From: an uncultured Pseudomonadales bacterium
Lineage (GTDB): Bacteria > Patescibacteriota > Microgenomatia > UBA1400 > RBG-16-45-19
NCBI GenBank assembly: GCA_964441155.1
Contig: CAYYKL010000004.1
Span: forward strand, 5,103 to 69,102
DNA: 64,000 nucleotides
Reading direction: 5' to 3'
The position numbers and the translations under genes are program-made. Below the pieces are notes generated by a model. It was not told the DNA's origin. It ran no database searches and saw only the letters and a program-made list of their open reading frames with translations. How positions within the stretch are numbered: the first letter of the stretch is position 1; every line of letters starts with the position of its first letter. This document shows positions 17,055-61,501 of the stretch, in pieces.

Positions 17055-17579
17055 CTAAATCGCAATAGCTCGGACGATTAAGCGCTTAGAATCTAGAAAG
17101 CCCGAGCAGGTATAGAGCGTTAGCGTGGGCTCCATGGTTTGTTGAATCCAAGAGATATCACTGGGATTTACTTCGGTAATGTGTTCAATTCGATAAGTAT
17201 GTTCGTTCTGGTTTTGATCGGTGACACTTATCCATTCGCCTGTTTTCAGTTCATCGAGTGACCCAAAAATGTGGGGATAGTTGTGGCCATAAATCACCAC
17301 ATTGCCGCCTGTCCCCAAACCAGCTGATTCACTTAAATAATTGCCCATGGTGTTGTCGACATACCAGGTGCCATCTGAAAGCTCGGTTCTCACCAAATTG
17401 ATATGTTTGCCTGAAGGCAATTTAATTTTCACCGGCAACAAGCGTTGTTCGAAGACCGGGCTTGAAATTCTAGGCGGCTGCTCTGTCCCTATAGTAATTA
17501 GACCTGAAGCAATAAACATCAAACCTATAACAAATAGGATTCGTAATGTATTTCGATAAATACGGGAACGCTTTGCCAT
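17055..17579 (-). CDS. Sortase (class E-like transpeptidase)
   Basis: N-terminal TM anchor, the conserved IYGHN histidine block, and the LTLYTC active-site cysteine (TLxTC). It lies immediately downstream of a LAXTG substrate gene. Confidence 0.75.
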   Translation of the reverse strand: MAKRSRIYRNTLRILFVIGLMFIASGLITIGTEQPPRISSPVFEQRLLPVKIKLPSGKHINLVRTELSDGTWYVDNTMGNYLSESAGLGTGGNVVIYGHNYPHIFGSLDELKTGEWISVTDQNQNEHTYRIEHITEVNPSDISWIQQTMEPTLTLYTCSGFLDSKRLIVRAIAI

Positions 17580-20242: not shown

Positions 20243-21202
20243 ATGGCGCAGAAGCCCACGATGTCAGCAAGCGATACAACGTCTTTTTTGCAACAAAAAT
20301 TTGGTCATGATATTTCTGAGCTTTCATTATTAAGCGGCGGGGAGTGGTCACAGGCATATTCATTTATCCATCAGAGTCAAAAATATGTGCTTCGCTGGTG
20401 CAAAACAAGAGAATCGTTTGAAAAAGATGCCTTTGCCAGCCAATTCAACTCGCTCAAACTTCCTATCCCTGCAATTTCACAACAAGGTAAAGCATTTGAC
20501 ATGTTTTATGCCATTTCGGATTTCGCACCAGGAAACTTCATCGAGACACTTTCTGCAACTGAACTAGAACTAACACTGCCGGCTTTATGTGACTTGTTCG
20601 ATGCCCTGCGAGATACAGACCTCTCGCCAACGACGGGCTATGGTTTGTGGGACGCATCAGGGCAGGGGAGTCATGCTAGTTGGAAAAGTTATCTGCTTGA
20701 CGTTATCAATGATCGTGAAAGCAGCATTACGCACGGATGGAGCGAGCATTTGCGATCACAACCAAAGCTTGGCGAAATGTTCAATTCGCTCTACGAAATT
20801 CTTGAGAAACACGTCAATGCTTGCCCTGAAGCAAGAGAGTTAATCCATTCAGACTTGCTCAACTTCAATCTGCTCGTATTGGATCACAAAATTAGTGGCG
20901 TTATCGATTGGCAATGCTCGATGTATGGCGATTCACTCTATGACATTGCCTGGTTTTTGTATTACGCACACTGGTATCCCCAATTTGCAGAGATAGGATT
21001 GAGCGAAAAAATACTTACTCACTATAAGCTCGAATCAAATCAAACCGAAAACATAGAGGACAGGCTCCTCTGCTACTATCTCCATATCGGCCTGGGCTCA
21101 ATTGCCTACAATGCCTACAAACAAGATTGGAAGGCAGCCCAAGACGCTTCCCATTACACCATGAAGATAGTTGGAGAATCACACAAGCAATTTATAAAAT
21201 AG
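20243..21202 (+). CDS. Phosphotransferase of the APH/choline-kinase superfamily
   Basis: Brenner motif HSDLLNFNLLV and DWQCSMYGDSLYDIAWF (the D..E / DxxxxxD region). It starts 5 nt after the GNAT gene, so the two are likely an operon. Confidence 0.7.
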   Translation: MAQKPTMSASDTTSFLQQKFGHDISELSLLSGGEWSQAYSFIHQSQKYVLRWCKTRESFEKDAFASQFNSLKLPIPAISQQGKAFDMFYAISDFAPGNFIETLSATELELTLPALCDLFDALRDTDLSPTTGYGLWDASGQGSHASWKSYLLDVINDRESSITHGWSEHLRSQPKLGEMFNSLYEILEKHVNACPEARELIHSDLLNFNLLVLDHKISGVIDWQCSMYGDSLYDIAWFLYYAHWYPQFAEIGLSEKILTHYKLESNQTENIEDRLLCYYLHIGLGSIAYNAYKQDWKAAQDASHYTMKIVGESHKQFIK

Positions 21203-21325
21203 GTGATTACATTGATATTTCTCATTTAAAAAGAGCCTTTGACATTCGAACTCTCACTTGCTCACTTGACTGATATTATAAAAGTAGTTCTGCTGAAAAA
21301 TTAATACAGAAATCAACTTTGATTT

Positions 21326-21577
21326 ATGAAAAGACTTCTCGCCCAAAATATTTCTATTCCAACACCGGTTGGTTATCCGCGTTATACAATGGAGCAATCA
21401 TTTTTACGCACTTTGCCGCTTTTGCTAGCTAGTTACTCGATTGCAATATTACTTGCATATGTTATTAGAAAATATTTAACAAACTTAATTCTTAAACATT
21501 TTCTACTGGTTATGATTTGGCTTGTTCCAATCGGATGGTCCGTATGGTGGATTTATGCTTGGAGCTCAACGTTCTAA
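21326..21577 (+). CDS. Small hypothetical membrane protein
   Basis: 83-aa ORF with two predicted TM helices. No recognisable homology. Confidence 0.3.
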   Translation: MKRLLAQNISIPTPVGYPRYTMEQSFLRTLPLLLASYSIAILLAYVIRKYLTNLILKHFLLVMIWLVPIGWSVWWIYAWSSTF

Positions 21578-21698
21578 CTTCAATGGTGATGATTTATATT
21601 TCTGAGGGATTCGAACTACATGAAACAAGGCATGTTGTGGATTTATAAATGCGAACGTGGGTGCCTGATTTTTTTAGCCGTTTGAATAATCAAGTGTA

Positions 21699-22286
21699 TT
21701 AACTTGAAGTTGCTTCTTCTAAAAGCTCTGGAAATTCATTCGTTCCCATTTGAAAGTAAAGAAAGTGCAATTTATCTTTTAATCTGACAATTCTTGGTTT
21801 CAATGCTTTCACATACAAAGTAAGTGACTCAAGGTGATGCGGCAAATCATTCGATGTGAATAACACAATTTCTTGGGCAATTCGAGTTGCATCTTCCGGT
21901 AGAGTGAAATCGTACAAATCTTGCCGAGTATCATCAGGAGTTTCAGGAATTTTTGCTGGAGCGACCAAAATAAGTTTTTGAACTTGTACGCCAGTTTCCA
22001 GCAACCAGCGTACTAGAAACGCTCCATCACAACTATGACCAATCAAGATGCTCTCTTGATCAATGCGGTATTTCTCAAACGCTTCTTTCCATTCAGAATA
22101 ATTTGGTTTCCAAGGTGTAGGCAAATCAAGAGCAATTGCTGATTTACCGTTTTCATTTAGCTTGTTTGCAAGCCAATTCATCCAACGATTTTCTTTGGGT
22201 GTTACTAGTGCTTCACTCGGAGGACAACCGTGAAGAATTAGGTACTGCGGGTTCGTTTGAGTCATAGTCCATAAAGTATATCGCAA
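21699..22286 (-). CDS. Alpha/beta-fold serine hydrolase (RBBP9/YdeN-like)
   Basis: LILHGCPPSE...ILIGHSCDGAFLVRWL (GHSxG nucleophile elbow). About 195 aa, typical of the Ser_hydrolase family. Confidence 0.6.
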   Translation of the reverse strand: MRYTLWTMTQTNPQYLILHGCPPSEALVTPKENRWMNWLANKLNENGKSAIALDLPTPWKPNYSEWKEAFEKYRIDQESILIGHSCDGAFLVRWLLETGVQVQKLILVAPAKIPETPDDTRQDLYDFTLPEDATRIAQEIVLFTSNDLPHHLESLTLYVKALKPRIVRLKDKLHFLYFQMGTNEFPELLEEATSS

Positions 22287-22354
22287 TCATTCACATGGTG
22301 GGCATCAAAACCCTGCTAAAACTAAATCTGGATTATAAAAAGTGTGGAAAATTA

Positions 22355-22387
22355 CAAAAAAAGACTGAAAATGATCAGTCTTTTTTA
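22355..22387. terminator. Bidirectional intrinsic-terminator-like hairpin
   Basis: aaaaaa-AGACTG-aaaatgat-CAGTCT-ttttt: a 6-bp stem flanked by an A-run and a T-run. Confidence 0.45.
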
Positions 22388-22500
22388 AAAGTGAACCCAC
22401 AGGAGAACTCTCGTTTCGCTTCGCATCACGGGATTTCTCAGGTTCGCTCTGCTCACTTGAGGCAAGAACCCTGAAGTATTAATTCAATCATAGGATAATT

Positions 22501-22534
22501 ACAAAAATAGGCTGGATTAATCCAGCCTATTTTG
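22501..22534. terminator. Bidirectional intrinsic terminator downstream of the minus-strand tRNA-Glu
   Basis: A perfect 20-nt palindrome AGGCTGGATTAATCCAGCCT flanked by caaaaat and attttg. Confidence 0.55.
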
Positions 22535-22537
22535 CAA

Positions 22538-22610
22538 GTGACCCCACAGGGAATCGAACCCTGGTTGCCGGGATGAAAACCCGATGTCCTAACCGCTAGA
22601 CGATGGGGCC
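22538..22610 (-). tRNA. tRNA-Glu (anticodon TTC)
   Basis: The reverse complement GGCCCCATCGTCTAGCGGTTAGGACATCGGGTTTTCATCCCGGCAACCAGGGTTCGATTCCCTGTGGGGTCA folds as a cloverleaf. The anticodon loop is TTTTCAT. No encoded CCA. Confidence 0.85.
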
Positions 22611-22694
22611 AGGGATAGACATGAGACGTCAGTGATAAGTCATTAGAATGTAATTTCTAACGACCCTAAGACCAAAGTCAAACGTCTAATCTTG

Positions 22695-22766
22695 TGAGCC
22701 CGGATGGGATCGAACCATCGACACAGAGCTTAAAAGGCTCCTGCTCTACCACTGAGCTACGGGCCC
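22695..22766 (-). tRNA. tRNA-Lys (anticodon TTT)
   Basis: The reverse complement GGGCCCGTAGCTCAGTGGTAGAGCAGGAGCCTTTTAAGCTCTGTGTCGATGGTTCGATCCCATCCGGGCTCA folds as a cloverleaf. Anticodon loop CTTTTAA. Confidence 0.85.
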
Positions 22767-23025
22767 GGATAAAATTCCGAGAGCATTTACTTGTCAAATA
22801 TTATTTCAATAATCCCACTGATGCCCTTACGGGCACTTGCGTCAGATATCCTTATCTGACTTCAGGCTACGGGCCCGAATAAAATTCCAAGGCATTTCTA
22901 TTTTAAATACACCACTTACTATCCCACTGATACCCTTCGGGTACTTCGGCCAATTTAAACGAATTGGTCTCAGGCATACAGGCCCAGAATAAATTCCGAG
23001 CCTGGGTATTATAGCGAGTCAAACC
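22757..23025. repeat. About 2.5 tandem copies of a ~110-bp unit; each begins with the first ~11 nt of tRNA-Lys (on the minus strand) and contains two hairpins
   Basis: ctacgggccc(g/a)ataaaattcc... recurs at 22757, 22867 and, degenerate, 22974. Both hairpins are retained in the two full units through compensatory substitutions. Confidence 0.6.
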
Positions 23026-23163
23026 CCACACAATCAACTAGGCAGACTCTTCTATCACCTCTGGAAGCAACCTCTTGACTTTTCGTCAAGCCCATCCCTA
23101 AGATGGGTAGGTGAGTAAATATCTTATCTACTCACGAATCAAAGCAGGAAGGGAGGTGAAATC

Positions 23164-24282
23164 ATGCAAATTAAATCTGCCCATTTATTAGGCGTCGCTG
23201 CCAGCTTCTTTCTAGCACTCGCAATGCTCGTTCCTGGAGCTCAAGCAGCACAAGTAAAAAACTTAAGCATAACCTTAAGTGATCCTAGACCGAATCCAAC
23301 AAGCACAACGCACACGTATTTGTTCACTCACGTGACTGCTGCAACACTCAAAATGATCAATTTTGAATACTGCACCACCCCGTCTGGAACATGCACTGCC
23401 CCTGCAAACGTTAACACCAGTTCTGCAACCGAAGGTACCCTAAGTGGTATTACGGCGGCACAATGGACATTAAACGTAGGTGTGGCTGCAAACCCCAAAC
23501 TTCAGCACACAGGTGCCGGAGAAGCCGTTTCAGGAAATACCGTTATGTCGCTTGGAATCGGTACAGTAACCAACCACGCAATTGATGACTGCCAGGCTGC
23601 TGGAGACACGTCGTCTGATACCTGTTATGTCCGTGTTACCTCGTGTACAGAAGTCACGAACTGTTCGTCTTCTGTCGCAACTAACAAGACTGATGAAGGT
23701 ATCGCCTCCTATACAGTCGTAGCCGCCGTCACGGTGACCGCTCGTGTTGATCCAACCTTTACGTTTGTGGTTAACTCAGTGGCTGCCAGCCAAGTGAACA
23801 ACGAAATCACGACTTCAGTTGCAAGTACGTTTAGCACGCTGCCTTTCGGCAACTTGACTGCCGGCACACCCAAATATGCCGCGCATCGCTTAAACGTGAC
23901 TACTAATACGCAAGCTGGATACACGGTATCCAACCGTATGGTAACTGCCATGACAGGTGTGTACGCAGGCAATAACATTGATCCGTTCACGCATGCCTGG
24001 AGTGCTGCCGCTGTCTGGACCGAACCAACGGGAACGGCCGCAAGCGTCAACACCGGCTGGGTCGGTGCGAATACAACCGACACTGATGTAGCCAACTGGA
24101 CCGCTGGTATGGCTCAAAAGTTCGGCGGTGTTACGAGTTCGGCTCAAACCGTCATGCAATCAAGCACCTCAGACAATGGTTCTAGTGGTGTCTATGTAAC
24201 TTATGCTGTAGAAGCGAATGTGTACCAACCAGCTGATACCTACACTGGTGTCCTGGTCTACAACGCTCTACCGACGTACTAA
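23164..24282 (+). CDS. Secreted Thr/Ser/Ala-rich surface protein; its C-terminal ~175-aa domain is paralogous to the C-terminus of ORF 24473..27316
   Basis: Signal peptide MQIKSAHLLGVAASFFLALAMLVPGAQA. The strong SD GGGAGGTG lies 7 nt upstream. The C-terminal ...ITTSVASTFSTLPFGNLTAGTPKYAAH...NNIDPF...WTEPTG...VYVTYAVE...PTY aligns with the end of the next gene. There are many N-x-S/T sequons. Confidence 0.6.
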   Translation: MQIKSAHLLGVAASFFLALAMLVPGAQAAQVKNLSITLSDPRPNPTSTTHTYLFTHVTAATLKMINFEYCTTPSGTCTAPANVNTSSATEGTLSGITAAQWTLNVGVAANPKLQHTGAGEAVSGNTVMSLGIGTVTNHAIDDCQAAGDTSSDTCYVRVTSCTEVTNCSSSVATNKTDEGIASYTVVAAVTVTARVDPTFTFVVNSVAASQVNNEITTSVASTFSTLPFGNLTAGTPKYAAHRLNVTTNTQAGYTVSNRMVTAMTGVYAGNNIDPFTHAWSAAAVWTEPTGTAASVNTGWVGANTTDTDVANWTAGMAQKFGGVTSSAQTVMQSSTSDNGSSGVYVTYAVEANVYQPADTYTGVLVYNALPTY

Positions 24283-24372
24283 TATGATGCCTTATTTGAT
24301 TGTTTTTAGAGGACGCCTCTCTTGAACTATCAAAACAAGCTCATGTTTTACGTCCGGATGTAAAACCAATAT

Positions 24373-24402
24373 CCCGCTGTAAGCGTTACAGCGGGATTTT
24401 TG
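24373..24402 (+). terminator. Intrinsic terminator after ORF 23164..24282
   Basis: CCCGCTGTAA-gcg-TTACAGCGGG followed by ATTTTTGG. Confidence 0.6.
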
Positions 24403-24472
24403 GTACTTCAGGTTACATACCAAGACATGTAGTCACTATATATGTGCTTAATGCGTTATGATGTTCTAGCGT

Positions 24473-27316
24473 ATGTCCATGAAATTTTTTCGTTTCGCAG
24501 CCATATTGTGTATGTGCTCTGGCCTAATTACCATGGTCGCACCTCGCCCTGCCCTTGCGGCTATCACCTCTGTTACGGAAGATTCAACCACCATTACCGT
24601 GAATGTCGCCAATAAATATCGAGCCATTTTTACCAAAGGCGATACAACTGACTATCTCAAGATTTATGATCGAGCCGAGGATGACAGTAATCCAGATCTC
24701 TTGCTGGAAGAGGTGGGACCATATATTTTTGAAGAAAACATTGATTACATGCTACGTTATGACCCCGGTCGCATCATGCAGATTGTCGAAGTCAGCGATA
24801 CTCGAGTTATCGTCGAAGCACGTGGTCATTTTTGTCGCACCGGCAATGAAAATTGTGTGGACGATGGCGCAGACGATATTTCAGTGCTAGCACTCTACAC
24901 CTTTACTCCAAATGGCATGTGGGTGAAGAACACGACTGATTTCAAAACCAGTGGCGTTGGACTTGATGCAACCGGAACCACCGATTCCTATAATTGGCTG
25001 AATCTTGAGGTTGATGGCACTGATGCCGCATTCTCGGACAGCGCATCTCCAGCAATCTATTATGGTGATGGGTCAACCGAAAGCTCAACCTCGACTGATG
25101 GAGATACCTTTGAAGATAGCAATGTCTATGTCGTCGCTCCCGGACAAGGCAGCTATCAATCCATGCATATTGGTGTAACTAATTGGCTCTCCATGGCCGG
25201 AGGTACCGATAATTGGCTTTGGGACGAAAACTTTTCTGGAACACTCGATAAACTAACCACACAGGAACAAGGGACAACACCAACGAGCACCAAAACTATG
25301 AGTTGGTTTGTTAGGTTTGCAACTCAAGGAGAACTAGATACCGAGAATGAACGTGAGGCAATTAGCAATGATCAGCGTAATCCGGATACACTTTCGTTTA
25401 CCACGGGTAGTGCGTGGCAAGAAGTAGGCAGCGATGATTTTAATGAATACCAAGGCACCTATACCGGTAATTTTTCGAGCAATGAATTATTGGTCGATCT
25501 CGACGGCAACACCTATTCTCGATTTTTCCCGCTGTGGAAGTTTAAAACCTGGAGATCAGTGAGTGCCCCCACATCAGCGAGCTTGGACGCGCTTTGGCTG
25601 GCCCCGGCAACAAGTTACAACATGAGCGTTCAACCAGTTGCGCATGCTTCCTGGGCACAAGATATTGCCCTCTACACCTCACTTGAATCCAGCGGTGCAT
25701 CAACGACACCCAACATTGGCCCTGCGGCAGGCAATGTTGACGGCACTACCACATTTGAAACGGGAATCTATGGGAATGGTGCACTCTTTAATACCGATGA
25801 TGAGCGAATCCGGTATGCCGGAGCTAATCTCACCTCCAATGCTTATTTTGACGCGGAGAGTGACTTCGGCACTATGGCGGTAGAGTTTTGGTTCAAACCG
25901 ACTAGCGACGATGACGCAGCCACGAACATGAATCTCTTTCGCATTGAGCTAGATGCAAGTAATGGCATGGGAGTGATCAAAAATTCTTCAACTAATCTTC
26001 GTTTGAGCCTGGAAACTAATGGCACCGCGTATAATTATCAGATTGCTAATGCCGACTTTTCAAGAATTTGGGAGGTCGGCAAATGGATGCATATTCGGGC
26101 TGTCTGGGACGACACGCAGGCCAACACAGATCAACAGAAAATATTTTTAAACGGGATTGAGCCCACACACACCGATCCAGGCACTGCATTTACTATTACC
26201 AATTTAACGAGTACGCCAAATGTAATCTTTATTGGAAATGGATCCGCTGGGACATCAGAAGCCAGAGGTATAATCGATGAATTTTATATCTACTCTGGAG
26301 CAATTCAACCCTTAGCTGCCGGAGGCAATACTGCTGATACTGACGAATATCTGAATGACACGAGCAGCGACTTTACTTTAAGCTTCGCCGATGACTCGAC
26401 CACCAACCAGGCAGAATATTTATTTTTAGGAGGTGAAACCAAATACACCGGCATAAATAGTTCATTGGCTACCCTTGGATCTGGCAGTTCACCTGCTGTT
26501 GATTGGGAGTATTGGAATGGGACGACTTGGAGTGCTCTAACGGTGACCGATACGACCAGCGGAGCAAATGATTTCACTGCCAGTGGCAATTTTTACTTTT
26601 CCGCTCCTTCGGATTGGGCTACTTATTCGCACTCTGCTTCACCTGAACTTTATTATGTCAGAGCCCACCTCGAATCAGGATCACTCACGACCAGCCCCGT
26701 TGAAGATACTATTCGCACCGATGCTGTTACGTTTCAATACTTAGGGAATGTCACAACTGCAGCCCAAAGTTTATCTTTGCCGTTAGAAAATCCATCAATC
26801 AGTTTTACCGTAAATGCAGTGCCTGGAAGTACTGCCACCAATGGAATTACTACGTCGGTAGCTAGCACATTCAACACCTTGCCATTTGGGAGCCTGGTCA
26901 TTGGCACGCCAAAATATGTAGCTCACCAGTTATCGGCTACCACCAATGCTCATTTTGGCTATGCCGTGACCATGAAACTCGTGAGCTACATGCAAGGCAA
27001 TTATCCGGGCAATAATATTGATCCGTTCATTGCGAGTTGGAGTATCCCCACCACCTGGACCGAACCAACGGGCTCAACTGCCAATGTGGACACTGGTTGG
27101 ATTGGTGCCAATACTTCAGACACCAGAGTAGCCAATTGGACAAGTGCTTCGGGACTGTTTGGCGGGATAACCAGCAGCGCGCAAACGGTAATGTACAGCA
27201 CGAGTGCTGATGACGGTAGCAATGTTTATGTGACCTATGCCGTAGAGGTGAACGACAAACAGCCGGCTGATCTGTATTCGGGATCGGTCACCTATACGAT
27301 TACACCCACATATTAA
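24473..27316 (+). CDS. Large secreted surface protein with a LamG/concanavalin-like domain and a C-terminal domain shared with ORF 23164..24282
   Basis: Signal peptide. ...MAVEFWFKPTSDDDA...GIIDEFYIYSGAIQPLAAGG resembles the LamG_3 motif (IDEvRIYNRALS). The last ~175 aa, ...ITTSVASTFNTLPFGSLVIGTPKYVAH...NNIDPF...WTEPTG...VYVTYAVE...PTY, are paralogous to the previous gene. Confidence 0.6.
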   Translation: MSMKFFRFAAILCMCSGLITMVAPRPALAAITSVTEDSTTITVNVANKYRAIFTKGDTTDYLKIYDRAEDDSNPDLLLEEVGPYIFEENIDYMLRYDPGRIMQIVEVSDTRVIVEARGHFCRTGNENCVDDGADDISVLALYTFTPNGMWVKNTTDFKTSGVGLDATGTTDSYNWLNLEVDGTDAAFSDSASPAIYYGDGSTESSTSTDGDTFEDSNVYVVAPGQGSYQSMHIGVTNWLSMAGGTDNWLWDENFSGTLDKLTTQEQGTTPTSTKTMSWFVRFATQGELDTENEREAISNDQRNPDTLSFTTGSAWQEVGSDDFNEYQGTYTGNFSSNELLVDLDGNTYSRFFPLWKFKTWRSVSAPTSASLDALWLAPATSYNMSVQPVAHASWAQDIALYTSLESSGASTTPNIGPAAGNVDGTTTFETGIYGNGALFNTDDERIRYAGANLTSNAYFDAESDFGTMAVEFWFKPTSDDDAATNMNLFRIELDASNGMGVIKNSSTNLRLSLETNGTAYNYQIANADFSRIWEVGKWMHIRAVWDDTQANTDQQKIFLNGIEPTHTDPGTAFTITNLTSTPNVIFIGNGSAGTSEARGIIDEFYIYSGAIQPLAAGGNTADTDEYLNDTSSDFTLSFADDSTTNQAEYLFLGGETKYTGINSSLATLGSGSSPAVDWEYWNGTTWSALTVTDTTSGANDFTASGNFYFSAPSDWATYSHSASPELYYVRAHLESGSLTTSPVEDTIRTDAVTFQYLGNVTTAAQSLSLPLENPSISFTVNAVPGSTATNGITTSVASTFNTLPFGSLVIGTPKYVAHQLSATTNAHFGYAVTMKLVSYMQGNYPGNNIDPFIASWSIPTTWTEPTGSTANVDTGWIGANTSDTRVANWTSASGLFGGITSSAQTVMYSTSADDGSNVYVTYAVEVNDKQPADLYSGSVTYTITPTY

Positions 27317-27859
27317 CTAGAGAATTTGTTTGTTTGCTGATATATCAAATTGCACAACTTTGGTCGTGGGACCTTGTTGCAGGGTGACTTGCACTAGGCC
27401 GTCTTTGCGTGGCAAGAAAAATTCATAGACAAAACTTCCACCAGCTGCAGGCTTAACGGACTTCATCTCCACTGCATGCCCAAGTACATTAGTATCTGCT
27501 GAGGCTGACGCATTAATTTCTTGTGGCAACAATGATTCGGGGGGCAGGACGGTCGCCGAAATAGTGATAGCCACTTGAGATTGGGGTGCTAATCCCGCCA
27601 CTTGCAGTCTGCCCGAATCGCTTGCATAGGCGACACTGGTGACTTCAATCGGTGAGGCTGCATCTTTTGGCGCGCTTTTTGGCTGACTCTGCATTGACTC
27701 AAGCATCTTTTTTAAATCTTCTACTGTAGCAGCATCTTTAGCGCTCGTTCCGGTGGTTGATTTGGCATCGGATTGTTTGCTTAGGGTTGCCGCGACAAAA
27801 ATCCCTACAGGGAGCAAGAGTAAAAGCAAAACGAGCAATAATTTATCTACGATTCCCAT
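27317..27859 (-). CDS. Hypothetical membrane-anchored protein (N-terminal poly-Leu TM segment, Ser/Ala/Thr-rich linker)
   Basis: 180-aa ORF with the LLLVLLLLLLPVGIFVAATL anchor. No recognisable domain. Confidence 0.35.
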   Translation of the reverse strand: MGIVDKLLLVLLLLLLPVGIFVAATLSKQSDAKSTTGTSAKDAATVEDLKKMLESMQSQPKSAPKDAASPIEVTSVAYASDSGRLQVAGLAPQSQVAITISATVLPPESLLPQEINASASADTNVLGHAVEMKSVKPAAGGSFVYEFFLPRKDGLVQVTLQQGPTTKVVQFDISANKQIL

Positions 27860-27916
27860 ACTTTTTTCCTAGAGTCACTATAGCGTACCATGATAGTGAA
27901 GGCTTAAATAACTAGT

Positions 27917-28699
27917 ATGCGTGCTGAATCTAATCACACTCTACCACCACATGCAAGCAAGAGCGCTCGCAAGGCAACCGCACAACGCATAACGTTTGTC
28001 GTTGGGCTTATTTGTCTCATTATAGGGATAACATTCATACTCGCCCTGAAGCGGGCAAGCAGCCAGGCGAAAGTCAAGGGAACCGCAACCCAACTATCAG
28101 CTTCACAAGTGCTGGCTCACGTAAACCTTCTGCGTCAAGAATTAGGCATTGCTCCTTTAGTTGTTCATCCCTCACTTGAGCAGGCTGCCGCGCAAAAAGC
28201 TGCCCACATGATCGATAGTGGCTATTGGGAACACACCGATCCCAATTCAGGCATTACCCCGTGGCAATTTATCGATGCCACTGGATATCGGTATGCAAAA
28301 GCTGGGGAAAATTTGGCTCGTGATTTCGATGATTCTCAAAAAGTCACTGAGGCTTGGATGGCCTCACCTCCACACCGAGCCAACTTGCTCGAATCTGCCT
28401 ACATGCATACGGGCATCGGCATCGCGTATGGCATGAGAAGCGATCAACCCACCGTGCTCGTGGTGCAACTGTTAGCCAAACCACTATTGCTACATGAGAC
28501 AGAAAGAACAGGCGAATTTATGTCCACTGCTGCCGTTGCCCCGCAATCAACGCCCACCATTATGCTTATCTTTGCCGGGGGAATACTTTTTGTCGTAGTG
28601 GGCTTGGGGGTACTCATGCTCTCAAGGCGCAACAGTGCACAACAGGTTTCAAATCGCCAGAGCAATAACGCCCCGCCCCTACATCTATGGAGCACATGA
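27917..28699 (+). CDS. CAP/SCP/PR-1 domain protein (YkwD-like) with a C-terminal TM anchor
   Basis: ...AHVNLLRQELGIAPLVVHPSLEQAAAQKAAHM...GENLAR...HRANLLESAYMHTGIGIAYG matches the bacterial CAP-domain family. Confidence 0.75.
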   Translation: MRAESNHTLPPHASKSARKATAQRITFVVGLICLIIGITFILALKRASSQAKVKGTATQLSASQVLAHVNLLRQELGIAPLVVHPSLEQAAAQKAAHMIDSGYWEHTDPNSGITPWQFIDATGYRYAKAGENLARDFDDSQKVTEAWMASPPHRANLLESAYMHTGIGIAYGMRSDQPTVLVVQLLAKPLLLHETERTGEFMSTAAVAPQSTPTIMLIFAGGILFVVVGLGVLMLSRRNSAQQVSNRQSNNAPPLHLWST

Positions 28700-28785
28700 G
28701 ATAACAAAAACCACACTTGAACTTAGGACCCAAAGTCAGCTACTATCAATACATAATCTAATTTTTTAAGAAGTGACCACTGCCC

Positions 28786-31128
28786 ATGGAACTATCTACA
28801 ATTGCCATTTCGCTGAATCAATCTACACTGCCATCTAGACGCGATGTAGGTAACAAAGCCTATCAATTAGCTCAAATGATGCAGGCAAAATTACCTGTCC
28901 CGAGCGCATTTTGTCTTACCACCCAAGCTTACGAACAATTTCTCGAAGAAAACAATCTTACACGACCGATCAAAGAAATTCTTGCGCACGTAAACCCTCA
29001 CCACAACGCCTCATTGTTTGATGCCAGTCGCGAAATTAAGCGGCTAATTCTTGAAGCAAAATTACCAGCGGAAACAAAATCAGCCATTACTAAAGAGCTG
29101 ACCAAGCTTGCGGCCAAAAAAAGCGAGCACTTGGTGGTTAGATCGTCAGCTATGATCGAGGATTTACCCCACTCCTCAATGGCTGGAGCGTTTACCAGCG
29201 TCATTGCCACTTCGGAAATAGCAAGCACCTATAAAGCAATCCGCTCATGCTATGCTTCACTCTACAACGCTCGCTCGCTGTATTACTTTGCTAAAAATAA
29301 ACAGCCATTTTCCACACTAAAAATGGGGGTGATTGTGCAGACCCTGGTCAAAGCTGATCGCTCAGGAGTCATGTTTACCGCTAATCCATTGAGCTCCGAC
29401 CGAGATTCAACCATCATTGAAGCTGTCTGGGGATTAGCTGAATCCATCGTGGCTGGAACACTCATTCCCGATCACTATGAAGTAAACACCAAGCAATGGC
29501 GCCTAACTCGCCAAGAAGTTGCCAAACAAACGCTGATGCTCTTGCCACATGAAAAAGGGAACAAACAAGGTGCCGTCCCTGCGTCTCAAGCAGAAAAAGC
29601 CAAGCTGACTGATCAAGAAATAATGACTCTGGCAAAACTAGGCAAAAAAATTGAAACGCTGTTTACGTATCCGCAAGACATCGAATGGGCATTCGAAAAA
29701 AACGAGTGTTTCCTGCTTCAATCGAGACCCATCACCACACTCATGCCCAAAGACGTCAAATCAGAAGTCGTTAATCCGAAGCGTTTAGGTCGAAGCTTGC
29801 CCGAGCCATTGCTTATTGGCATTATTGCCAGCCCTGGCATTGCCTATGGTCGAGTGGTCTTTGTTGACGACAAAACTGAAAGCTTGCCTGAAGATGCCGT
29901 CATCGTTGCCAAGCGCTTGCCTCCACAGCTAGCACCCCTTTTGCGCGTCGCCAAAGCGCTCATTTCCGAGCAAGGGGGAGTGAGCTCCCATGCAGCCATC
30001 TTAAGTCGTGAGTTTTTGTTGCCAACAATCATCCAAGCAAACGGAGCTACGCGCAAGCTAAAACCTGGTTCGTTTGTCACCGTCGATGCTACCACTGGCA
30101 GAGTCTATGAAGGCAAACTCCCTATTGAGCAACTTAAATTAACCCTTCCCGCTCAAAAGCGAAATATCAGAGATATTAAAACTAAAACCAAAGTATATTT
30201 ATCCCTGCCCGAGATCGAACTGGCACACCCTTACTCACATAAATATGCAGATGGCGTGGGTATTATCCGCGGGGAAGCCATCCTCAAGGAATCTATCTCG
30301 CATCACCCTTTGCACGTGTCAGCACTTCAAAAGAACAAATATTTGGTTACCAAATGGTCTGAAGGTATTGAAACTGTAGCCCAGAGTTTTTACCCCAGAC
30401 CGGTGCTCTATGCTTTCACGAGTTCTCCGAGCAATCATATGGCCGCGCTCGCTGGCGGGAGAGAATTTGAGACAACAGAGAGTAACCCGGCATTAGGTTT
30501 ACGAGGTGCCGCTAAAATGCTTCTGAATCCTCGGTCAGTTGTACACGAGCTTAAAGCATTGGAAATGGCCAGAGAAAAACGCGGCTATAAAAATATCCAC
30601 CTCATCTTGCCATTCGTGCGCACCCCTCATGAACTCAAGCAACTGAAAAAAATTCTGACTGGTTTTCAACTCAACCGCCGAGTCAATCTCAAGCATTTTT
30701 TAAGTATTGACACCATGAATACCGTTCTTATGCTCGATGATTGTATTGACGTGGGCTTAGATGGCATTTTTGTCGATAGCGACATTCTAGCGCAATCAGT
30801 TTTGAGCATCGATCCAGATAACGAACTACTTGATGAAAATTATCAGCGGGATTTGACGGGCATGCACAAAGCACTTGAGATTGTGGTACGCACTGCTAAG
30901 CGTCGAGGCATTGCATGCTTAGTAACCGGCTCGCACTTGCACCTGGACAAAGATCTTCTAGAAAAAGTCTTAAGTTGGGGAGCCAGCAGCATTGCTGCCG
31001 AAGCCGCCTATTTGGATGGCATGCGCCTGGAGACATTTGAGTTTGAACAAGAACACAACAAACCAACTGCTCAAGAGAAAAAAAGAACAACCTCATTGTC
31101 GGTCTTCCAAAGAATATTCAAAAAGTGA
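28786..31128 (+). CDS. ppsA: Phosphoenolpyruvate synthase / pyruvate-phosphate dikinase family enzyme
   Basis: The N-terminal PPDK_N region GNKAYQLAQMMQAKLPVPSAFCLTTQAYEQF, the phospho-histidine mobile domain GGVSSHAAILSREFLLPT, and the C-terminal PEP-utilising TIM barrel. 780 aa. Confidence 0.75.
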   Translation: MELSTIAISLNQSTLPSRRDVGNKAYQLAQMMQAKLPVPSAFCLTTQAYEQFLEENNLTRPIKEILAHVNPHHNASLFDASREIKRLILEAKLPAETKSAITKELTKLAAKKSEHLVVRSSAMIEDLPHSSMAGAFTSVIATSEIASTYKAIRSCYASLYNARSLYYFAKNKQPFSTLKMGVIVQTLVKADRSGVMFTANPLSSDRDSTIIEAVWGLAESIVAGTLIPDHYEVNTKQWRLTRQEVAKQTLMLLPHEKGNKQGAVPASQAEKAKLTDQEIMTLAKLGKKIETLFTYPQDIEWAFEKNECFLLQSRPITTLMPKDVKSEVVNPKRLGRSLPEPLLIGIIASPGIAYGRVVFVDDKTESLPEDAVIVAKRLPPQLAPLLRVAKALISEQGGVSSHAAILSREFLLPTIIQANGATRKLKPGSFVTVDATTGRVYEGKLPIEQLKLTLPAQKRNIRDIKTKTKVYLSLPEIELAHPYSHKYADGVGIIRGEAILKESISHHPLHVSALQKNKYLVTKWSEGIETVAQSFYPRPVLYAFTSSPSNHMAALAGGREFETTESNPALGLRGAAKMLLNPRSVVHELKALEMAREKRGYKNIHLILPFVRTPHELKQLKKILTGFQLNRRVNLKHFLSIDTMNTVLMLDDCIDVGLDGIFVDSDILAQSVLSIDPDNELLDENYQRDLTGMHKALEIVVRTAKRRGIACLVTGSHLHLDKDLLEKVLSWGASSIAAEAAYLDGMRLETFEFEQEHNKPTAQEKKRTTSLSVFQRIFKK

Positions 31129-58406: not shown

Positions 58407-58478
58407 GCCCTCGTAGCTTAAAGGATAAAGCAACGGTCTTCGGAACCGTTGATGGGGGTTCGATTCCCTCCGAGGGCA
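58407..58478 (+). tRNA. tRNA-Arg (anticodon TCG)
   Basis: GCCCTCGTAGCTTAAAGGATAAAGCAACGGTCTTCGGAACCGTTGATGGGGGTTCGATTCCCTCCGAGGGCA. Anticodon loop CTTCGGA. The acceptor stem GCCCTCG/CGAGGGC pairs. Confidence 0.8.
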
Positions 58479-58581
58479 CTTAAAATCACTAAAGTACATT
58501 CAAGCTTGTACATAACAGCACTTACCTTGAGGCAACTTTTTGATTTTTAACATATTATAATAGTGTGCAAGCTTTTTAATT

Positions 58582-58653
58582 GCGCCCATAGCTCAGTGGT
58601 AGAGCGGTCGCCTCTTAAGCGATTGGTCGAAGGTCCGAATCCTTCTGGGCGCA
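58582..58653 (+). tRNA. tRNA-Lys (anticodon CTT)
   Basis: GCGCCCATAGCTCAGTGGTAGAGCGGTCGCCTCTTAAGCGATTGGTCGAAGGTCCGAATCCTTCTGGGCGCA. Anticodon loop CTCTTAA. Confidence 0.85.
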
Positions 58654-58766
58654 CACATATGGAATCATTGCTTGAATTTTTTTCTTTTATGAGCGATCGT
58701 TTCCAAGCTTCACACTTTAATCCAAGCGCTTGAGCTCATATACTGATCATGATACGGTAATAAGGT

Positions 58767-59393
58767 ATGCCTAAGTCTTTAATTGTTATCGGATGGCTCG
58801 TGAGCTGCATCGTCATGCTTTCTGTCAGCACCACAACTCTTCAGTTTTTACTTAAGCCACAATATTTGCCTGAGAAAAATTCAAACTCCCAAGCAGTTAC
58901 GCTTCCTAATACCTCGCAAGTTGAGTCTCCGGCAACCTTAGGGATTGCTACCAGCGCAATGGTTGCCGACGCTCGCACAGAGATTATCGCTCGTTACTTG
59001 CATAAATATGATTCCCCCATGTCTGGATATGCGAGCTTAATAGTAGACACGGCTAATCTGGTTGCCAATGAATACAATTTAGATGCAACTCAGTTGGCAT
59101 ATCTCACTATTGCTATTGCGCAGAATGAAAGCAACCTGGGCAAGCGGATGCCAGAAAACTGCTTTAATGCTTGGGGATGGGGAATACATTCGGCCGGAAC
59201 ACTCTGTTTTGATAGCTGGGAAGAGGCAATACCAAAGTATATGAATGACTTTGCAAAAGAATATATGTATAAACAAGGACTCAATTCTCCAGAAGCAATC
59301 ATGAGTCGATACACTCCCCACTCACCAAATGGAGCGTGGGCAAAAAATGTTTCACACTTTCTTCATCTCATTGAGACTTATACATTTGAATAG
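58767..59393 (+). CDS. Membrane-anchored glucosaminidase-like (FlgJ/LytD-type) peptidoglycan hydrolase
   Basis: N-terminal TM. ...LTIAIAQNESNLGKRMPENCFNAWGWGIH... resembles the Glucosaminidase-domain motif (AQAxLESGWG...NNLFGI). Confidence 0.4.
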   Translation: MPKSLIVIGWLVSCIVMLSVSTTTLQFLLKPQYLPEKNSNSQAVTLPNTSQVESPATLGIATSAMVADARTEIIARYLHKYDSPMSGYASLIVDTANLVANEYNLDATQLAYLTIAIAQNESNLGKRMPENCFNAWGWGIHSAGTLCFDSWEEAIPKYMNDFAKEYMYKQGLNSPEAIMSRYTPHSPNGAWAKNVSHFLHLIETYTFE

Positions 59394-59453
59394 GCCGCAA
59401 AAAGATATTTTATTCAATTGCAACTTGGTTGGAGCAGAAGATTGCTCCAGTAG

Positions 59454-59482
59454 TTGACAATCCCATATTATTTTCATATAAT
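59454..59482 (+). promoter_or_regulatory. Consensus sigma70-type promoter (TTGACA-17-TATAAT)
   Basis: TTGACA at 59454..59459, a 17-nt spacer, and TATAAT at 59477..59482. An intrinsic terminator follows immediately. Confidence 0.5.
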
Positions 59483-59492
59483 ACCGCCACGT

Positions 59493-59533
59493 CCAACGGT
59501 TTCTCTCACCGGAGTTACTGTTGGATTTTTTTT
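59493..59533 (+). terminator. Intrinsic terminator (8-bp stem, T8 run)
   Basis: CCAACGGT-[16 nt loop]-ACTGTTGG followed by ATTTTTTTT. Confidence 0.55.
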
Positions 59534-59625
59534 ATTCTCTTTTTTAAGTGCCTATAAATTAGTAGAATTTTACGTTCAATCCTGTATACTCTTTTCTGGT
59601 CGTCCCATTTCTTAATGCAAAGATT

Positions 59626-59713
59626 GCCAGAGTGCTGGAACTGGTAGACAGGCACGGCTTAGGACCGTGTGCGGTTTTACCGCGTGTGGGTTCAAGTCCC
59701 TCCTCTGGCACCA
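59626..59713 (+). tRNA. tRNA-Leu (anticodon TAG), type II with a long variable arm; CCA encoded
   Basis: GCCAGAGTGCTGGAACTGGTAGACAGGCACGGCTTAGGACCGTG...GGGTTCAAGTCCCTCCTCTGGCACCA. Anticodon loop CTTAGGA. Confidence 0.8.
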
Positions 59714-59785
59714 TCAGTCGCATATTTTAAGTGCTTGTCAATTAGTGGCATTATTACTAATGTTTCTTGAGGTATACTACGTGCT

Positions 59786-60607
59786 ATGAAATTTACACTA
59801 TCTATTCCACTTTCTGACCATACTCAAGCTCGTAATGAGGTCATTGCCAAACTGGCGCTAAGCGTAACCGTTAAAGGGTTTCGCAAAGGCAAAGCACCGA
59901 TAGCCAAGGTTGAAGAAAAATTAGATGAGGGATACATTACCGAACAGACGGTCAATCATATATTCCCTTCAGCTTTTCGTATCTATTTGCAAAAAAATAA
60001 TCTTGAACCTATAGGCGATCCAAGCGTTACGATTACCTCAATTGAAAAAGATAAAGATTGGGAATTTGAAGTTGAGATTGCGCAAAAACCAGAGGTGATA
60101 TTGGGTGATTATGCAAAAAAAATTGCATCTCAAAATAGCGCCTCGCAAATAATTTTGCCAGGAGATGAAGCATCCAAGACGCAAGTTCCAGATAAAGAAA
60201 ACAAAATTAATAAAATTTTGGAATTATTATTAGAAGAAGTAAAAGTGGAAGTTCCGAAATTATTAGTTGAGCAGGAAGCAAACCGCAAATTAGCCACCCT
60301 TGTTAAGCAGATTACCGATATGGGGCTTACGGTAGATGCATATCTAAAATCTCAAAATATCACCAAAGAACAGCTTAAAGAGCAATATGAACATGCAGTT
60401 GAAACTAATCTCAGGGTAGATTTTACTCTAGAAGCAATCGCACTTGAGCAAAAGATCCAGGTGTCAGATATCGAATTACGTGAACAAATCAACAGTATCA
60501 ACGATCCACATGAGAGAAAACACGTTGAAGAAAGTGACATGTATCAAGCCAGTCTTCGGTATTCCCTCATGAGAAACAAAGTAATTGATTATCTCTTAAA
60601 CCTATAA
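59786..60607 (+). CDS. tig: Trigger factor, short form (ribosome-binding N-domain plus C-terminal chaperone domain; no PPIase domain)
   Basis: The GFRKGKAP signature in the N-terminal domain and a conserved TF C-terminal region. 273 aa against about 430 for canonical TF. Confidence 0.65.
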   Translation: MKFTLSIPLSDHTQARNEVIAKLALSVTVKGFRKGKAPIAKVEEKLDEGYITEQTVNHIFPSAFRIYLQKNNLEPIGDPSVTITSIEKDKDWEFEVEIAQKPEVILGDYAKKIASQNSASQIILPGDEASKTQVPDKENKINKILELLLEEVKVEVPKLLVEQEANRKLATLVKQITDMGLTVDAYLKSQNITKEQLKEQYEHAVETNLRVDFTLEAIALEQKIQVSDIELREQINSINDPHERKHVEESDMYQASLRYSLMRNKVIDYLLNL

Positions 60608-60683
60608 TATTACTTTTCTAAGGTGTTTATTGCTGATATAATTGTCGAGAGCTTGTTGAGCTCGTTTGTGGTAGGAAAAAAAT

Positions 60684-61331
60684 ATGAGCGATAACAGTCC
60701 ATTTCAGCCACTAAATCAGTCAAAAACAACTAAGCCTAAGCTTAACCAACAAAGCTTTGTTGAGGCGCTAAAAAACGTGGGCTCAGGTGTCGCAAACACA
60801 GTTAAGGATGATTTAATAAAGCCCATAGCTATGGATGCATGGGATAGTCTGGTTAAAAACCCAGGTAATTCAAGGCCGACTGAATCTAAATCCGCTTCCA
60901 GCTGGGATAACGACTGGCTTAAGCAACGAGAGGAAGAAATTCGAGCTCAAGAACGAGCCAAACGACGACATCAAGAGATATTAACGGCCAAACCATTGTT
61001 TGATCGTCAAGCTGAAGAAACAAAGGCTCAAATCAAAGCTATTCAGGACGAACTTAAAGCATTAGCTAAAGACATGGCGAGCTTGGGCACGTCTTTACAG
61101 CAAGCAATTGAAGAAGAAATTGTCAGTCCAGGAGCATATCACATCAGTTTTTTCGAAAAACTGCGCACGTTTATCGTGCAACTGCGCAAGCAAGTAAACG
61201 AATCATCGAACTGGTTGGAAGCGAGCTCGGCTCGAAAAGCAGCCAAAAAATCATATTGGGGTAATGTGAAAAAGCATGGCACCAAATACATGCTCTCAGA
61301 CGAGAGATCAAAAGCTACTCAAGCTGGCTAA
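60684..61331 (+). CDS. Hypothetical coiled-coil protein
   Basis: 215-aa ORF, K/E/Q-rich with a heptad character. No recognised family. Confidence 0.3.
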   Translation: MSDNSPFQPLNQSKTTKPKLNQQSFVEALKNVGSGVANTVKDDLIKPIAMDAWDSLVKNPGNSRPTESKSASSWDNDWLKQREEEIRAQERAKRRHQEILTAKPLFDRQAEETKAQIKAIQDELKALAKDMASLGTSLQQAIEEEIVSPGAYHISFFEKLRTFIVQLRKQVNESSNWLEASSARKAAKKSYWGNVKKHGTKYMLSDERSKATQAG

Positions 61332-61424
61332 AAAGCAAATTCGATGCGGTTAAGCCTTTTCAAATTTCTTCCTGGTGGTTACAATACGCCTGTCCTATTG
61401 AATCATGTTTAGATAAGTAGATTT

Positions 61425-61501
61425 GACCGCTTAGCTCAGTTGGCTAGAGCGCTTCGTTGACATCGAAGAGGTCGGAGGTTCAAGTCCTCCAGCGGTCACC
61501 A
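61425..61501 (+). tRNA. tRNA-Val (anticodon GAC); CCA encoded
   Basis: GACCGCTTAGCTCAGTTGGCTAGAGCGCTTCGTTGACATCGAAGAGGTCGGAGGTTCAAGTCCTCCAGCGGTCACCA. Anticodon loop TTGACAT. Confidence 0.85.

Follow-up and report, generated by a model that had tools for sequence, protein, structure and literature searches.

The tyrT locus of Escherichia coli was reportedly found in 1981 to carry 178-bp tandem repeats downstream of tRNA-Tyr, each with the 3'-terminal ~19 nt of the tRNA. The locus described here, upstream of tRNA-Lys in a stretch of DNA of 64,000 nucleotides (the window), resembled it in that tandem units lay beside a tRNA gene, were seeded by its terminal piece, were probably co-transcribed with it and arose by local duplication. 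It differed from tyrT in that the main array was on the 5' side and included copies of the tRNA 5' end and of the promoter and leader, and in that the array encoded no plausible peptide while its hairpins were kept by compensatory change. A closer analogue of the tyrT repeats at this locus was a 58-nt duplicate of the tRNA-Glu tail and terminator. Transcribed spacers of tRNA operons can be functional, as the leuZ 3'ETS of E. coli is an sRNA sponge; this is a precedent for selection on non-tRNA parts of a precursor, and for the present locus a lead only.

Fragments of prokaryotic tRNA genes have been traced to integration of elements (attL/attR, 3' parts, kilobases apart) and to CRISPR spacers (van der Gulik et al. 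2023, PMC9897764). The units described here were likewise partial, non-functional copies near an intact gene, but they were 5' parts, in tandem, ~110 bp apart and with no mobile element. In the tRNA-Lys(CUU)-tRNA-Lys(UUU) pairs of Alphaproteobacteria (L057 and L093) the same 11-nt head was found ~90-110 nt upstream of tRNA-Lys(UUU); there it belonged to a complete and scorable upstream tRNA, whereas here no unit scored as a tRNA and only nt 1-29 were traceable. Whether or not its hairpins are selected, the locus is a local curiosity and no new system, of a kind already known as tRNA-flanking partial duplications.

The window had a GC content of ~42%, and homologues of the neighbouring proteins carried the names Roizmanbacteria, Beckwithbacteria, Microgenomates and Patescibacteria. 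By these names the DNA belongs to an uncultured bacterium of the Patescibacteria (CPR), apparently one of the Microgenomates. The intact tRNA-Lys(UUU) gene was followed by tRNA-Glu(UUC), and a Lys-Glu tRNA pair was found also in other Microgenomates (L019 and L089). The ~235 bases upstream of tRNA-Lys comprised two units of ~110 bp and a decayed third, and every unit ended in the first 11 nt (the head) of tRNA-Lys, read on the minus strand. The features of the locus were as follows.

23008..23037, minus strand: predicted sigma-70-type promoter TTGATT-18-TATAAT, in the distal partial unit (best scan match in the region, 10/12).
22975..23003, minus strand: leader start and decayed head 3 (GGGCCTGTATG, 22985-22975), with a predicted 5' hairpin AGGCUCGGAA/UUCUGGGCCU.
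22866..22974, minus strand: repeat unit 2 (model R1, 82.4 bits), with hairpin A (22949-22968), hairpin B (22931-22943), TCAGTGG resembling tRNA nt 12-18 (22924-22930), a decayed promoter/leader copy and then head 2 (GGGCCCGTAGC, 22866-22876).
22767..22865, minus strand: repeat unit 1, abutting tRNA-Lys +1 (model R1, 87.6 bits together with head 2), with hairpin A (22841-22860), hairpin B (22822-22835), TCAGTGG (22815-22821), TTGACA (22792-22797) and leader CTCGGAATTTTATCC (22767-22781).
22694..22766, minus strand: tRNA-Lys(UUU), intact, whose 5' part seeds the repeats (ARAGORN; Rfam tRNA model, 68.6 bits).
22538..22610, minus strand: tRNA-Glu(UUC), lying 83 nt downstream of tRNA-Lys as the operon's second gene (ARAGORN; Rfam).
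22493..22550, minus strand: reference copy of the 3' duplicate, comprising the tRNA-Glu 3' end (13 nt), terminator 1 (a perfect 15+15 palindrome, 22504-22533) and flank.
22346..22403, minus strand: second copy of the 3' duplicate, comprising pseudo-tail CCTGTGGGTTCAC (22391-22403), terminator 2 (22357-22386) and flank GTAATTTTCC.

The 26-mer GCTACGGGCCCGGATAAAATTCCGAG at 22756 recurred at 22866 (24/26) and 22975 (20/26), with spacings of 110 and 109 bp; at up to three mismatches it had two occurrences in the window against 0.00 expected by chance. Global alignment of units 1 and 2 gave 69% identical columns (75% of the ungapped ones) and a score of 69, compared with -25 ± 9 for shuffles (z ~10), and the third copy was recognisable over its last ~35 nt only. 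The array was not detected by TRF (Tandem Repeats Finder) because it holds just two diverged copies. A preliminary description of this DNA had claimed tandem units seeded by the tRNA-Lys 5' end, and all the strings that it quoted were found in their places. The small ORFs in the repeats were not credible. When the 64-kb window and the other Patescibacteria loci were searched, model R1 and the sequence patterns matched this locus only, and within these sequences a dispersed palindromic repeat or MITE (REP- or BOX-like) had no support.

The repeat was not an assembly artefact, the region being 100% identical in seven independent Logan assemblies. These assemblies were essentially one strain (99.7% identity or more, along up to 8 kb), so they added no comparative information. 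Over positions 21150-30282 of the window, ten unrelated sequencing runs (L001-L010) gave the same strain with the same minimum identity and extent; runs containing it include SRR13214015, SRR8893623 and SRR33385776. To the next relatives of its genes, protein identity fell to 73-87%; it is a widespread, clonal organism of a poorly sampled genus. Four independent Logan assemblies (L002, L003, L004 and L006) all broke at 22737/22738, inside tRNA-Lys, presumably because the 3' half of the tRNA is common to other organisms in the samples, and this break explains the scarcity of contigs spanning the whole operon.

By the gene beside the repeats, two relatives were found on short contigs reaching into the intergenic region, L135 (87% protein identity) and L136 (83%), from the runs SRR28385526 and SRR27197510. 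Comparison of synteny revealed the same promoter-head-unit-head-unit-tRNA-Lys architecture in L136, which had, in order, promoter TTGATT-18-TATAAT, ACCCAGG, a head, a unit, a decayed head 2 (GGGCCAAGTAGC), a second unit and tRNA-Lys. Head 3 was better preserved in L136 (GGGCCCGTACG) than in the window, and the leaders were of similar length (242 nt in L136, 234 nt in the window). L135 had the same promoter and a long AT-decayed leader with one recognisable unit, in which the heads and hairpin B were largely decayed; its contig ended before the tRNA. Over the whole leader, identity to the window was 63% for L136 and 47% for L135, and 4-fold degenerate sites of the adjacent gene were 53-56% identical between the species. 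The repeat structure is therefore restricted to a narrow lineage, yet older than one species. More distant homologues of the adjacent 372-aa gene (56-63%) had no tRNAs nearby and no repeats, homologues of the Ser_hydrolase gene downstream (70-73%) were not syntenic, and the contigs for P0121 and P0125 were too short to inform the comparison.

A background set of 120 loci sharing the tRNA-Lys 5' half, mostly from Alphaproteobacteria and Thermoanaerobaculia, was obtained by an unspecific search. Head-only repeats were found in none of these 120 other genomes; 2/120 had an upstream head, in both cases as part of a complete tRNA-Lys(CUU) gene. The five Patescibacteria of the set had apparently short leaders, with -10-like boxes ~15-45 nt upstream and no head repeat. 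Searching metagenomes (JGI collection) for the architecture head-N(80-110)-tRNA gave one match, on the unrelated high-GC contig L134, where (2754-2885) the same 11-mer as head 2 lay ~100 nt upstream of a tRNA starting with it; by a rough estimate this match is compatible with chance. Viral contigs gave chance matches only, the best match to the model being L202 at 28 bits, apparently coding and without a tRNA.

The preliminary description had derived the units from the tRNA-Lys gene, and this proved correct for its 5' part. Nucleotides 1-11 of the tRNA matched 11/11, and nt 12-18 matched in both window units. Unit 2 of L136 carried TCAGTGGTAGAGCAGGAG, identical to tRNA-Lys nt 12-29 (18/18), and aligned to tRNA-Lys with z=5.8 against shuffles; at the same position window units 1 and 2 both read TCAGTGGGAT. 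Taken by itself, the window gave just two matches that reached about the top 1-5% of shuffled controls, the 11-nt head and the 13-nt Glu tail, so that the assignment of nt 12-29 rests on L136. Past nt 29 there was no signal of tRNA homology, middle-only alignments of the window units and of L136 unit 1 giving P=0.41-0.95. The suggestion that whole tRNAs had decayed in place was not borne out, as Rfam and ARAGORN found no tRNA in the units and nothing aligned beyond nt 29; even a relaxed search (Rfam at E<=10 and ARAGORN, 22250-23200) returned just the two real tRNAs. A model of complete decayed tRNAs fused head-to-tail via the palindromic GGGCCC was rejected for want of support past nt 29. Among the families of Rfam 15, the best non-tRNA matches scored 15-26 bits, where the thresholds are 42-70.

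Ahead of the next head, each unit aligned to the distal promoter and leader, TTTGAC...TATAAT...CTCGGAATTTATTCT matching TTTGAC...TAAATG...CTCGGAATTTTATCC. Stem-loop B, just upstream of the nt 12-29 remnant, read GTGCCCGTAAGGGCA and looks like a second copy of tRNA nt 1-9 (GGGCCCGTA) that has been lengthened to a palindrome. The units are thus patchworks in which 5' pieces of tRNA-Lys (to nt 29) are combined with pieces of its former promoter and leader. A segment running from the promoter through a short leader to the first ~29 nt of tRNA-Lys would have been copied at least twice: a tandem duplication of roughly -37 to +29 may have come first, after which the pseudo-copy was remodelled and the resulting ~110-nt unit duplicated again. 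Each unit contains a head (nt 1-11), stem-loop A, stem-loop B, a remnant of nt 12-29 and the -10 box and leader as a decayed copy.

Hairpin A (22841-22860 and 22949-22968) and hairpin B (22822-22835 and 22931-22943; gcccTTAcgggc and acccTTCgggt) occupied equivalent positions in the two units. When the inserts of window units 1 and 2 and of L136 unit 2 were aligned (alignment A4; 32 nt, ungapped), 94.9% of cells were paired, 5/13 pairs had changed on both sides, and one hairpin position showed three different Watson-Crick pairs (A-U, G-C and U-A); sliding the 3' partners as a control gave 21-38% paired and 0-1 double changes. Five units from three species of closely related lineages were aligned by hand around the structure, the most diverged of them, which MAFFT misaligned, being placed by hand and with a covariance model. 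In this alignment 55/60 cells were paired and 8/13 pairs doubly changed, and 0/20000 column shuffles were as good. Model R1, built from three units, recovered L136 unit 1 and the L135 unit at the expected positions with filters off (E ~0.02-0.03). The non-Watson-Crick cells, two G.U and three A.C on the tRNA-sense strand, did not identify the strand, and the fold energy of unit 2 gave no signal (z ~0).

These results indicated that base pairs were kept through changes on both sides beyond the controls, on few and related sequences in a partly hand-made alignment. The compensatory hairpins of the preliminary description held, and the relatives made the evidence much stronger; its view that hairpin A kept its structure without likeness of sequence had to be given up, A being homologous and in the same register with several double substitutions. 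The leader as a whole drifts near the neutral rate, but each unit has kept its two stem-loops, and the motif GGGYATCAGTGG has been kept as well. Retention of the stems argues for constraint, because synonymous sites are near saturation and the leader is just 63% and 47% identical in the two relatives. Selection on RNA structure in the leader hairpins is therefore likely, as judged from the sequences. The same compensation could be mimicked by self-correction of palindromes at the DNA level, or template-switch repair, without RNA selection.

We consider it probable, if by no means certain, that the array arose by local tandem partial duplication of the tRNA-Lys 5' region and now forms a long leader whose hairpins are likely selected. 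Their most likely role would be as elements for folding, stability or processing, either of the tRNA precursor or of the leader once excised. More tentatively, the hairpin modules may make up a functional, lineage-specific structured leader RNA derived from the partial duplications of tRNA-Lys, which either controls folding and 5' maturation of the tRNA-Lys/tRNA-Glu precursor or is released by RNase P as a stable sRNA with its own role. A separate proposal, that a pseudo-head blocks the acceptor stem, was rejected: in silico the effect amounted to 6-8 kcal/mol in the window and only 1.4 kcal/mol in an L136 graft.

If the hairpins are selected, a reduced genome, of a sort in which non-coding DNA is usually scarce, has turned material from a tRNA duplication into a structured leader that is conserved, and leaders of tRNA operons join the places in which to seek lineage-specific RNA elements in Patescibacteria. 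A functional leader RNA, if real, would be a new non-coding RNA that arose from pieces of a tRNA gene in an ultra-small genome of the Patescibacteria. Without selection on the hairpins, the locus still documents 5'-side tRNA fragments made by local tandem duplication without a mobile element; such fragments matter for tRNA annotation and for the use of tRNA fragments as island markers.

The main alternative, to which we grant a minor but real chance, is that the units are neutral relics of tandem tRNA-Lys genes, complete or partial, and that the hairpins persist by intrastrand template switching, not by RNA selection. Template-switch mutagenesis in quasi-palindromes is an established process and counts for this reading, as do the presence of tRNA-Lys nt 1-11 and 12-29 in the units, the occurrence in other bacteria of genuine tRNA-Lys genes in tandem, repeating every 89-99 nt, and a leader identity (63% and 47%) close to the neutral 53-56%. 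Decay of the heads and hairpin B in L135 and the lack of a fold-energy signal in unit 2 are also what it would lead one to expect. However, no unit is recognisable as a tRNA and nothing past nt 29 aligns; hairpin A stayed in register across all five units, and one of its positions had three different Watson-Crick pairs, although neutral sites are near saturation; and both architecture and leader length were conserved between species.

How the leader would be transcribed bears on a further reading, in which the units serve as tandem active promoters (like P1/P2 of rRNA operons), with several starts including TTGACA-17-TTTTAT at +1. The preliminary description had proposed this proximal promoter, and its parts were indeed present: TTGACA (22797-22792), a spacer of 17 nt, TTTTAT, CC and G+1. 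A perfect TTGACA with a 17-nt spacer in unit 1, and the -10/leader copies of the distal promoter that the units include, favour such use. TTTTAT is, however, a poor -10 box, without the conserved A at position 2, and was not called by the promoter scan; the L136 proximal unit has no TTGACA; and the positions aligned with the distal TATAAT are degenerate (TAAATG in unit 1, AGAAAT in unit 2). Only the distal promoter (23037-23008) both passed the scan and was conserved in all three species, being 83-88% identical in L135 and L136, against 53-56% at 4-fold degenerate sites. Tandem active promoters are thus unlikely.

No terminator was found between the distal promoter and the tRNA. From the conservation of the upstream promoter and the absence of a terminator before the tRNA, we infer that the leader is transcribed, and the operon is most likely read from a single predicted start near 23001 with a leader of ~235 nt. 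The most upstream promoter copy is the only intact one, and RNase P would remove the leader at tRNA-Lys +1. Other tRNAs of the window had TTGxxx-17-TAxAAT promoters 20-45 nt upstream, and these short distances fit an ancestral short leader that was duplicated later. In the spacer between tRNA-Lys and tRNA-Glu (22611-22693), complementary ends (TTAGACGT ... GACGTCT) enclosed an internal hairpin TTAGAA/TTCTAA, a fold that is possibly a processing stem.

The repeats shared a 397-bp intergenic region with a gene for a 372-aa secreted protein that starts divergently at 23164, and they might serve that gene through the DNA or the other strand, whether as upstream regulatory sites or as a small or antisense RNA. 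Weak plus-strand promoter-like sites were seen at 22786-22813 and 22856-22885, and the counts of G.U and A.C cells are compatible with the plus strand. The sites were not common to both units, however, the 372-aa gene had a conserved promoter of its own (TTGACT-18-TAAGAT, 23075-23104), placed well past the repeats on their downstream side, and its distant homologues had neither tRNAs nor repeats, which makes this role very unlikely.

The 372-aa protein itself had no Pfam match, and homologues across Patescibacteria. Its gene was followed, within the region 23164-27316, by one for a larger protein, which in the window has 947 aa and carries a Laminin_G_3 domain. Among relatives (L137-L139), proteins of ~590 aa contained a stretch of ~180 residues that matched about half of the 372-aa protein at 50-60% identity, and often shared a contig with its homologue. 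The two genes look like a surface-protein cassette that has been conserved as a pair. At 17055-17579 of the window there was a gene for a sortase.

On the 3' side, the fragment CCTGTGGGTTCAC (22391-22403), noted earlier as resembling the tRNA-Glu 3' end, matched that end at 12/13 positions and belonged to a 58-nt duplicate, offset 147 nt downstream, whose copies were 74% identical and included the flank GTAATTWTCC. The first 60 nt were homologous (P<0.001) and the remaining 87 nt not alignable. The two terminator stems were two double substitutions apart and both still fold. This duplicate suggests that the locus is prone to local duplication. Further tRNA-Glu-like pieces downstream (CAGGGTTC and GGGTTTTGATGCC) were within shuffle expectation and were discarded.

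An earlier proposal, that the fragments are att-site scars of since-deleted integrative elements targeting tRNA-Lys and tRNA-Glu, could appeal to integration as the origin most often documented for tRNA gene fragments in prokaryotes (PMC9897764) and to the tRNA-Glu fragment as a 3'-terminal 13-mer, the usual kind of att core, but it is largely refuted and extremely improbable, since the Lys fragments are 5' ends, the homology of the copies (~100 nt for Lys; for Glu, 45 nt beyond the tRNA end into terminator and flank) far exceeds a core, the copies lie a mere 99-134 bp apart, the module had no true match in viral contigs, and no integrase, recombinase or transposase was present among 21 ORFs scanned (8.1-36.2 kb), leaving none within ~13 kb.

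The terminator after tRNA-Glu (22504-22533) was a loopless 30-nt palindrome between an A-run and a T-run, and it could act in both directions; terminator 2 (22357-22386) had a 12-bp stem and a 6-nt loop. Elsewhere in the window, four tRNA genes formed a loose cluster at 58407-61501, namely Arg(TCG), Lys(CTT), Leu(TAG) and Val(GAC), and these were without head or tail repeats. A TAxAAT-type -10 box lay 20-45 nt upstream of Arg, Lys(CTT) and Val, with none obvious for Leu, and CCA was encoded in Leu and Val only.
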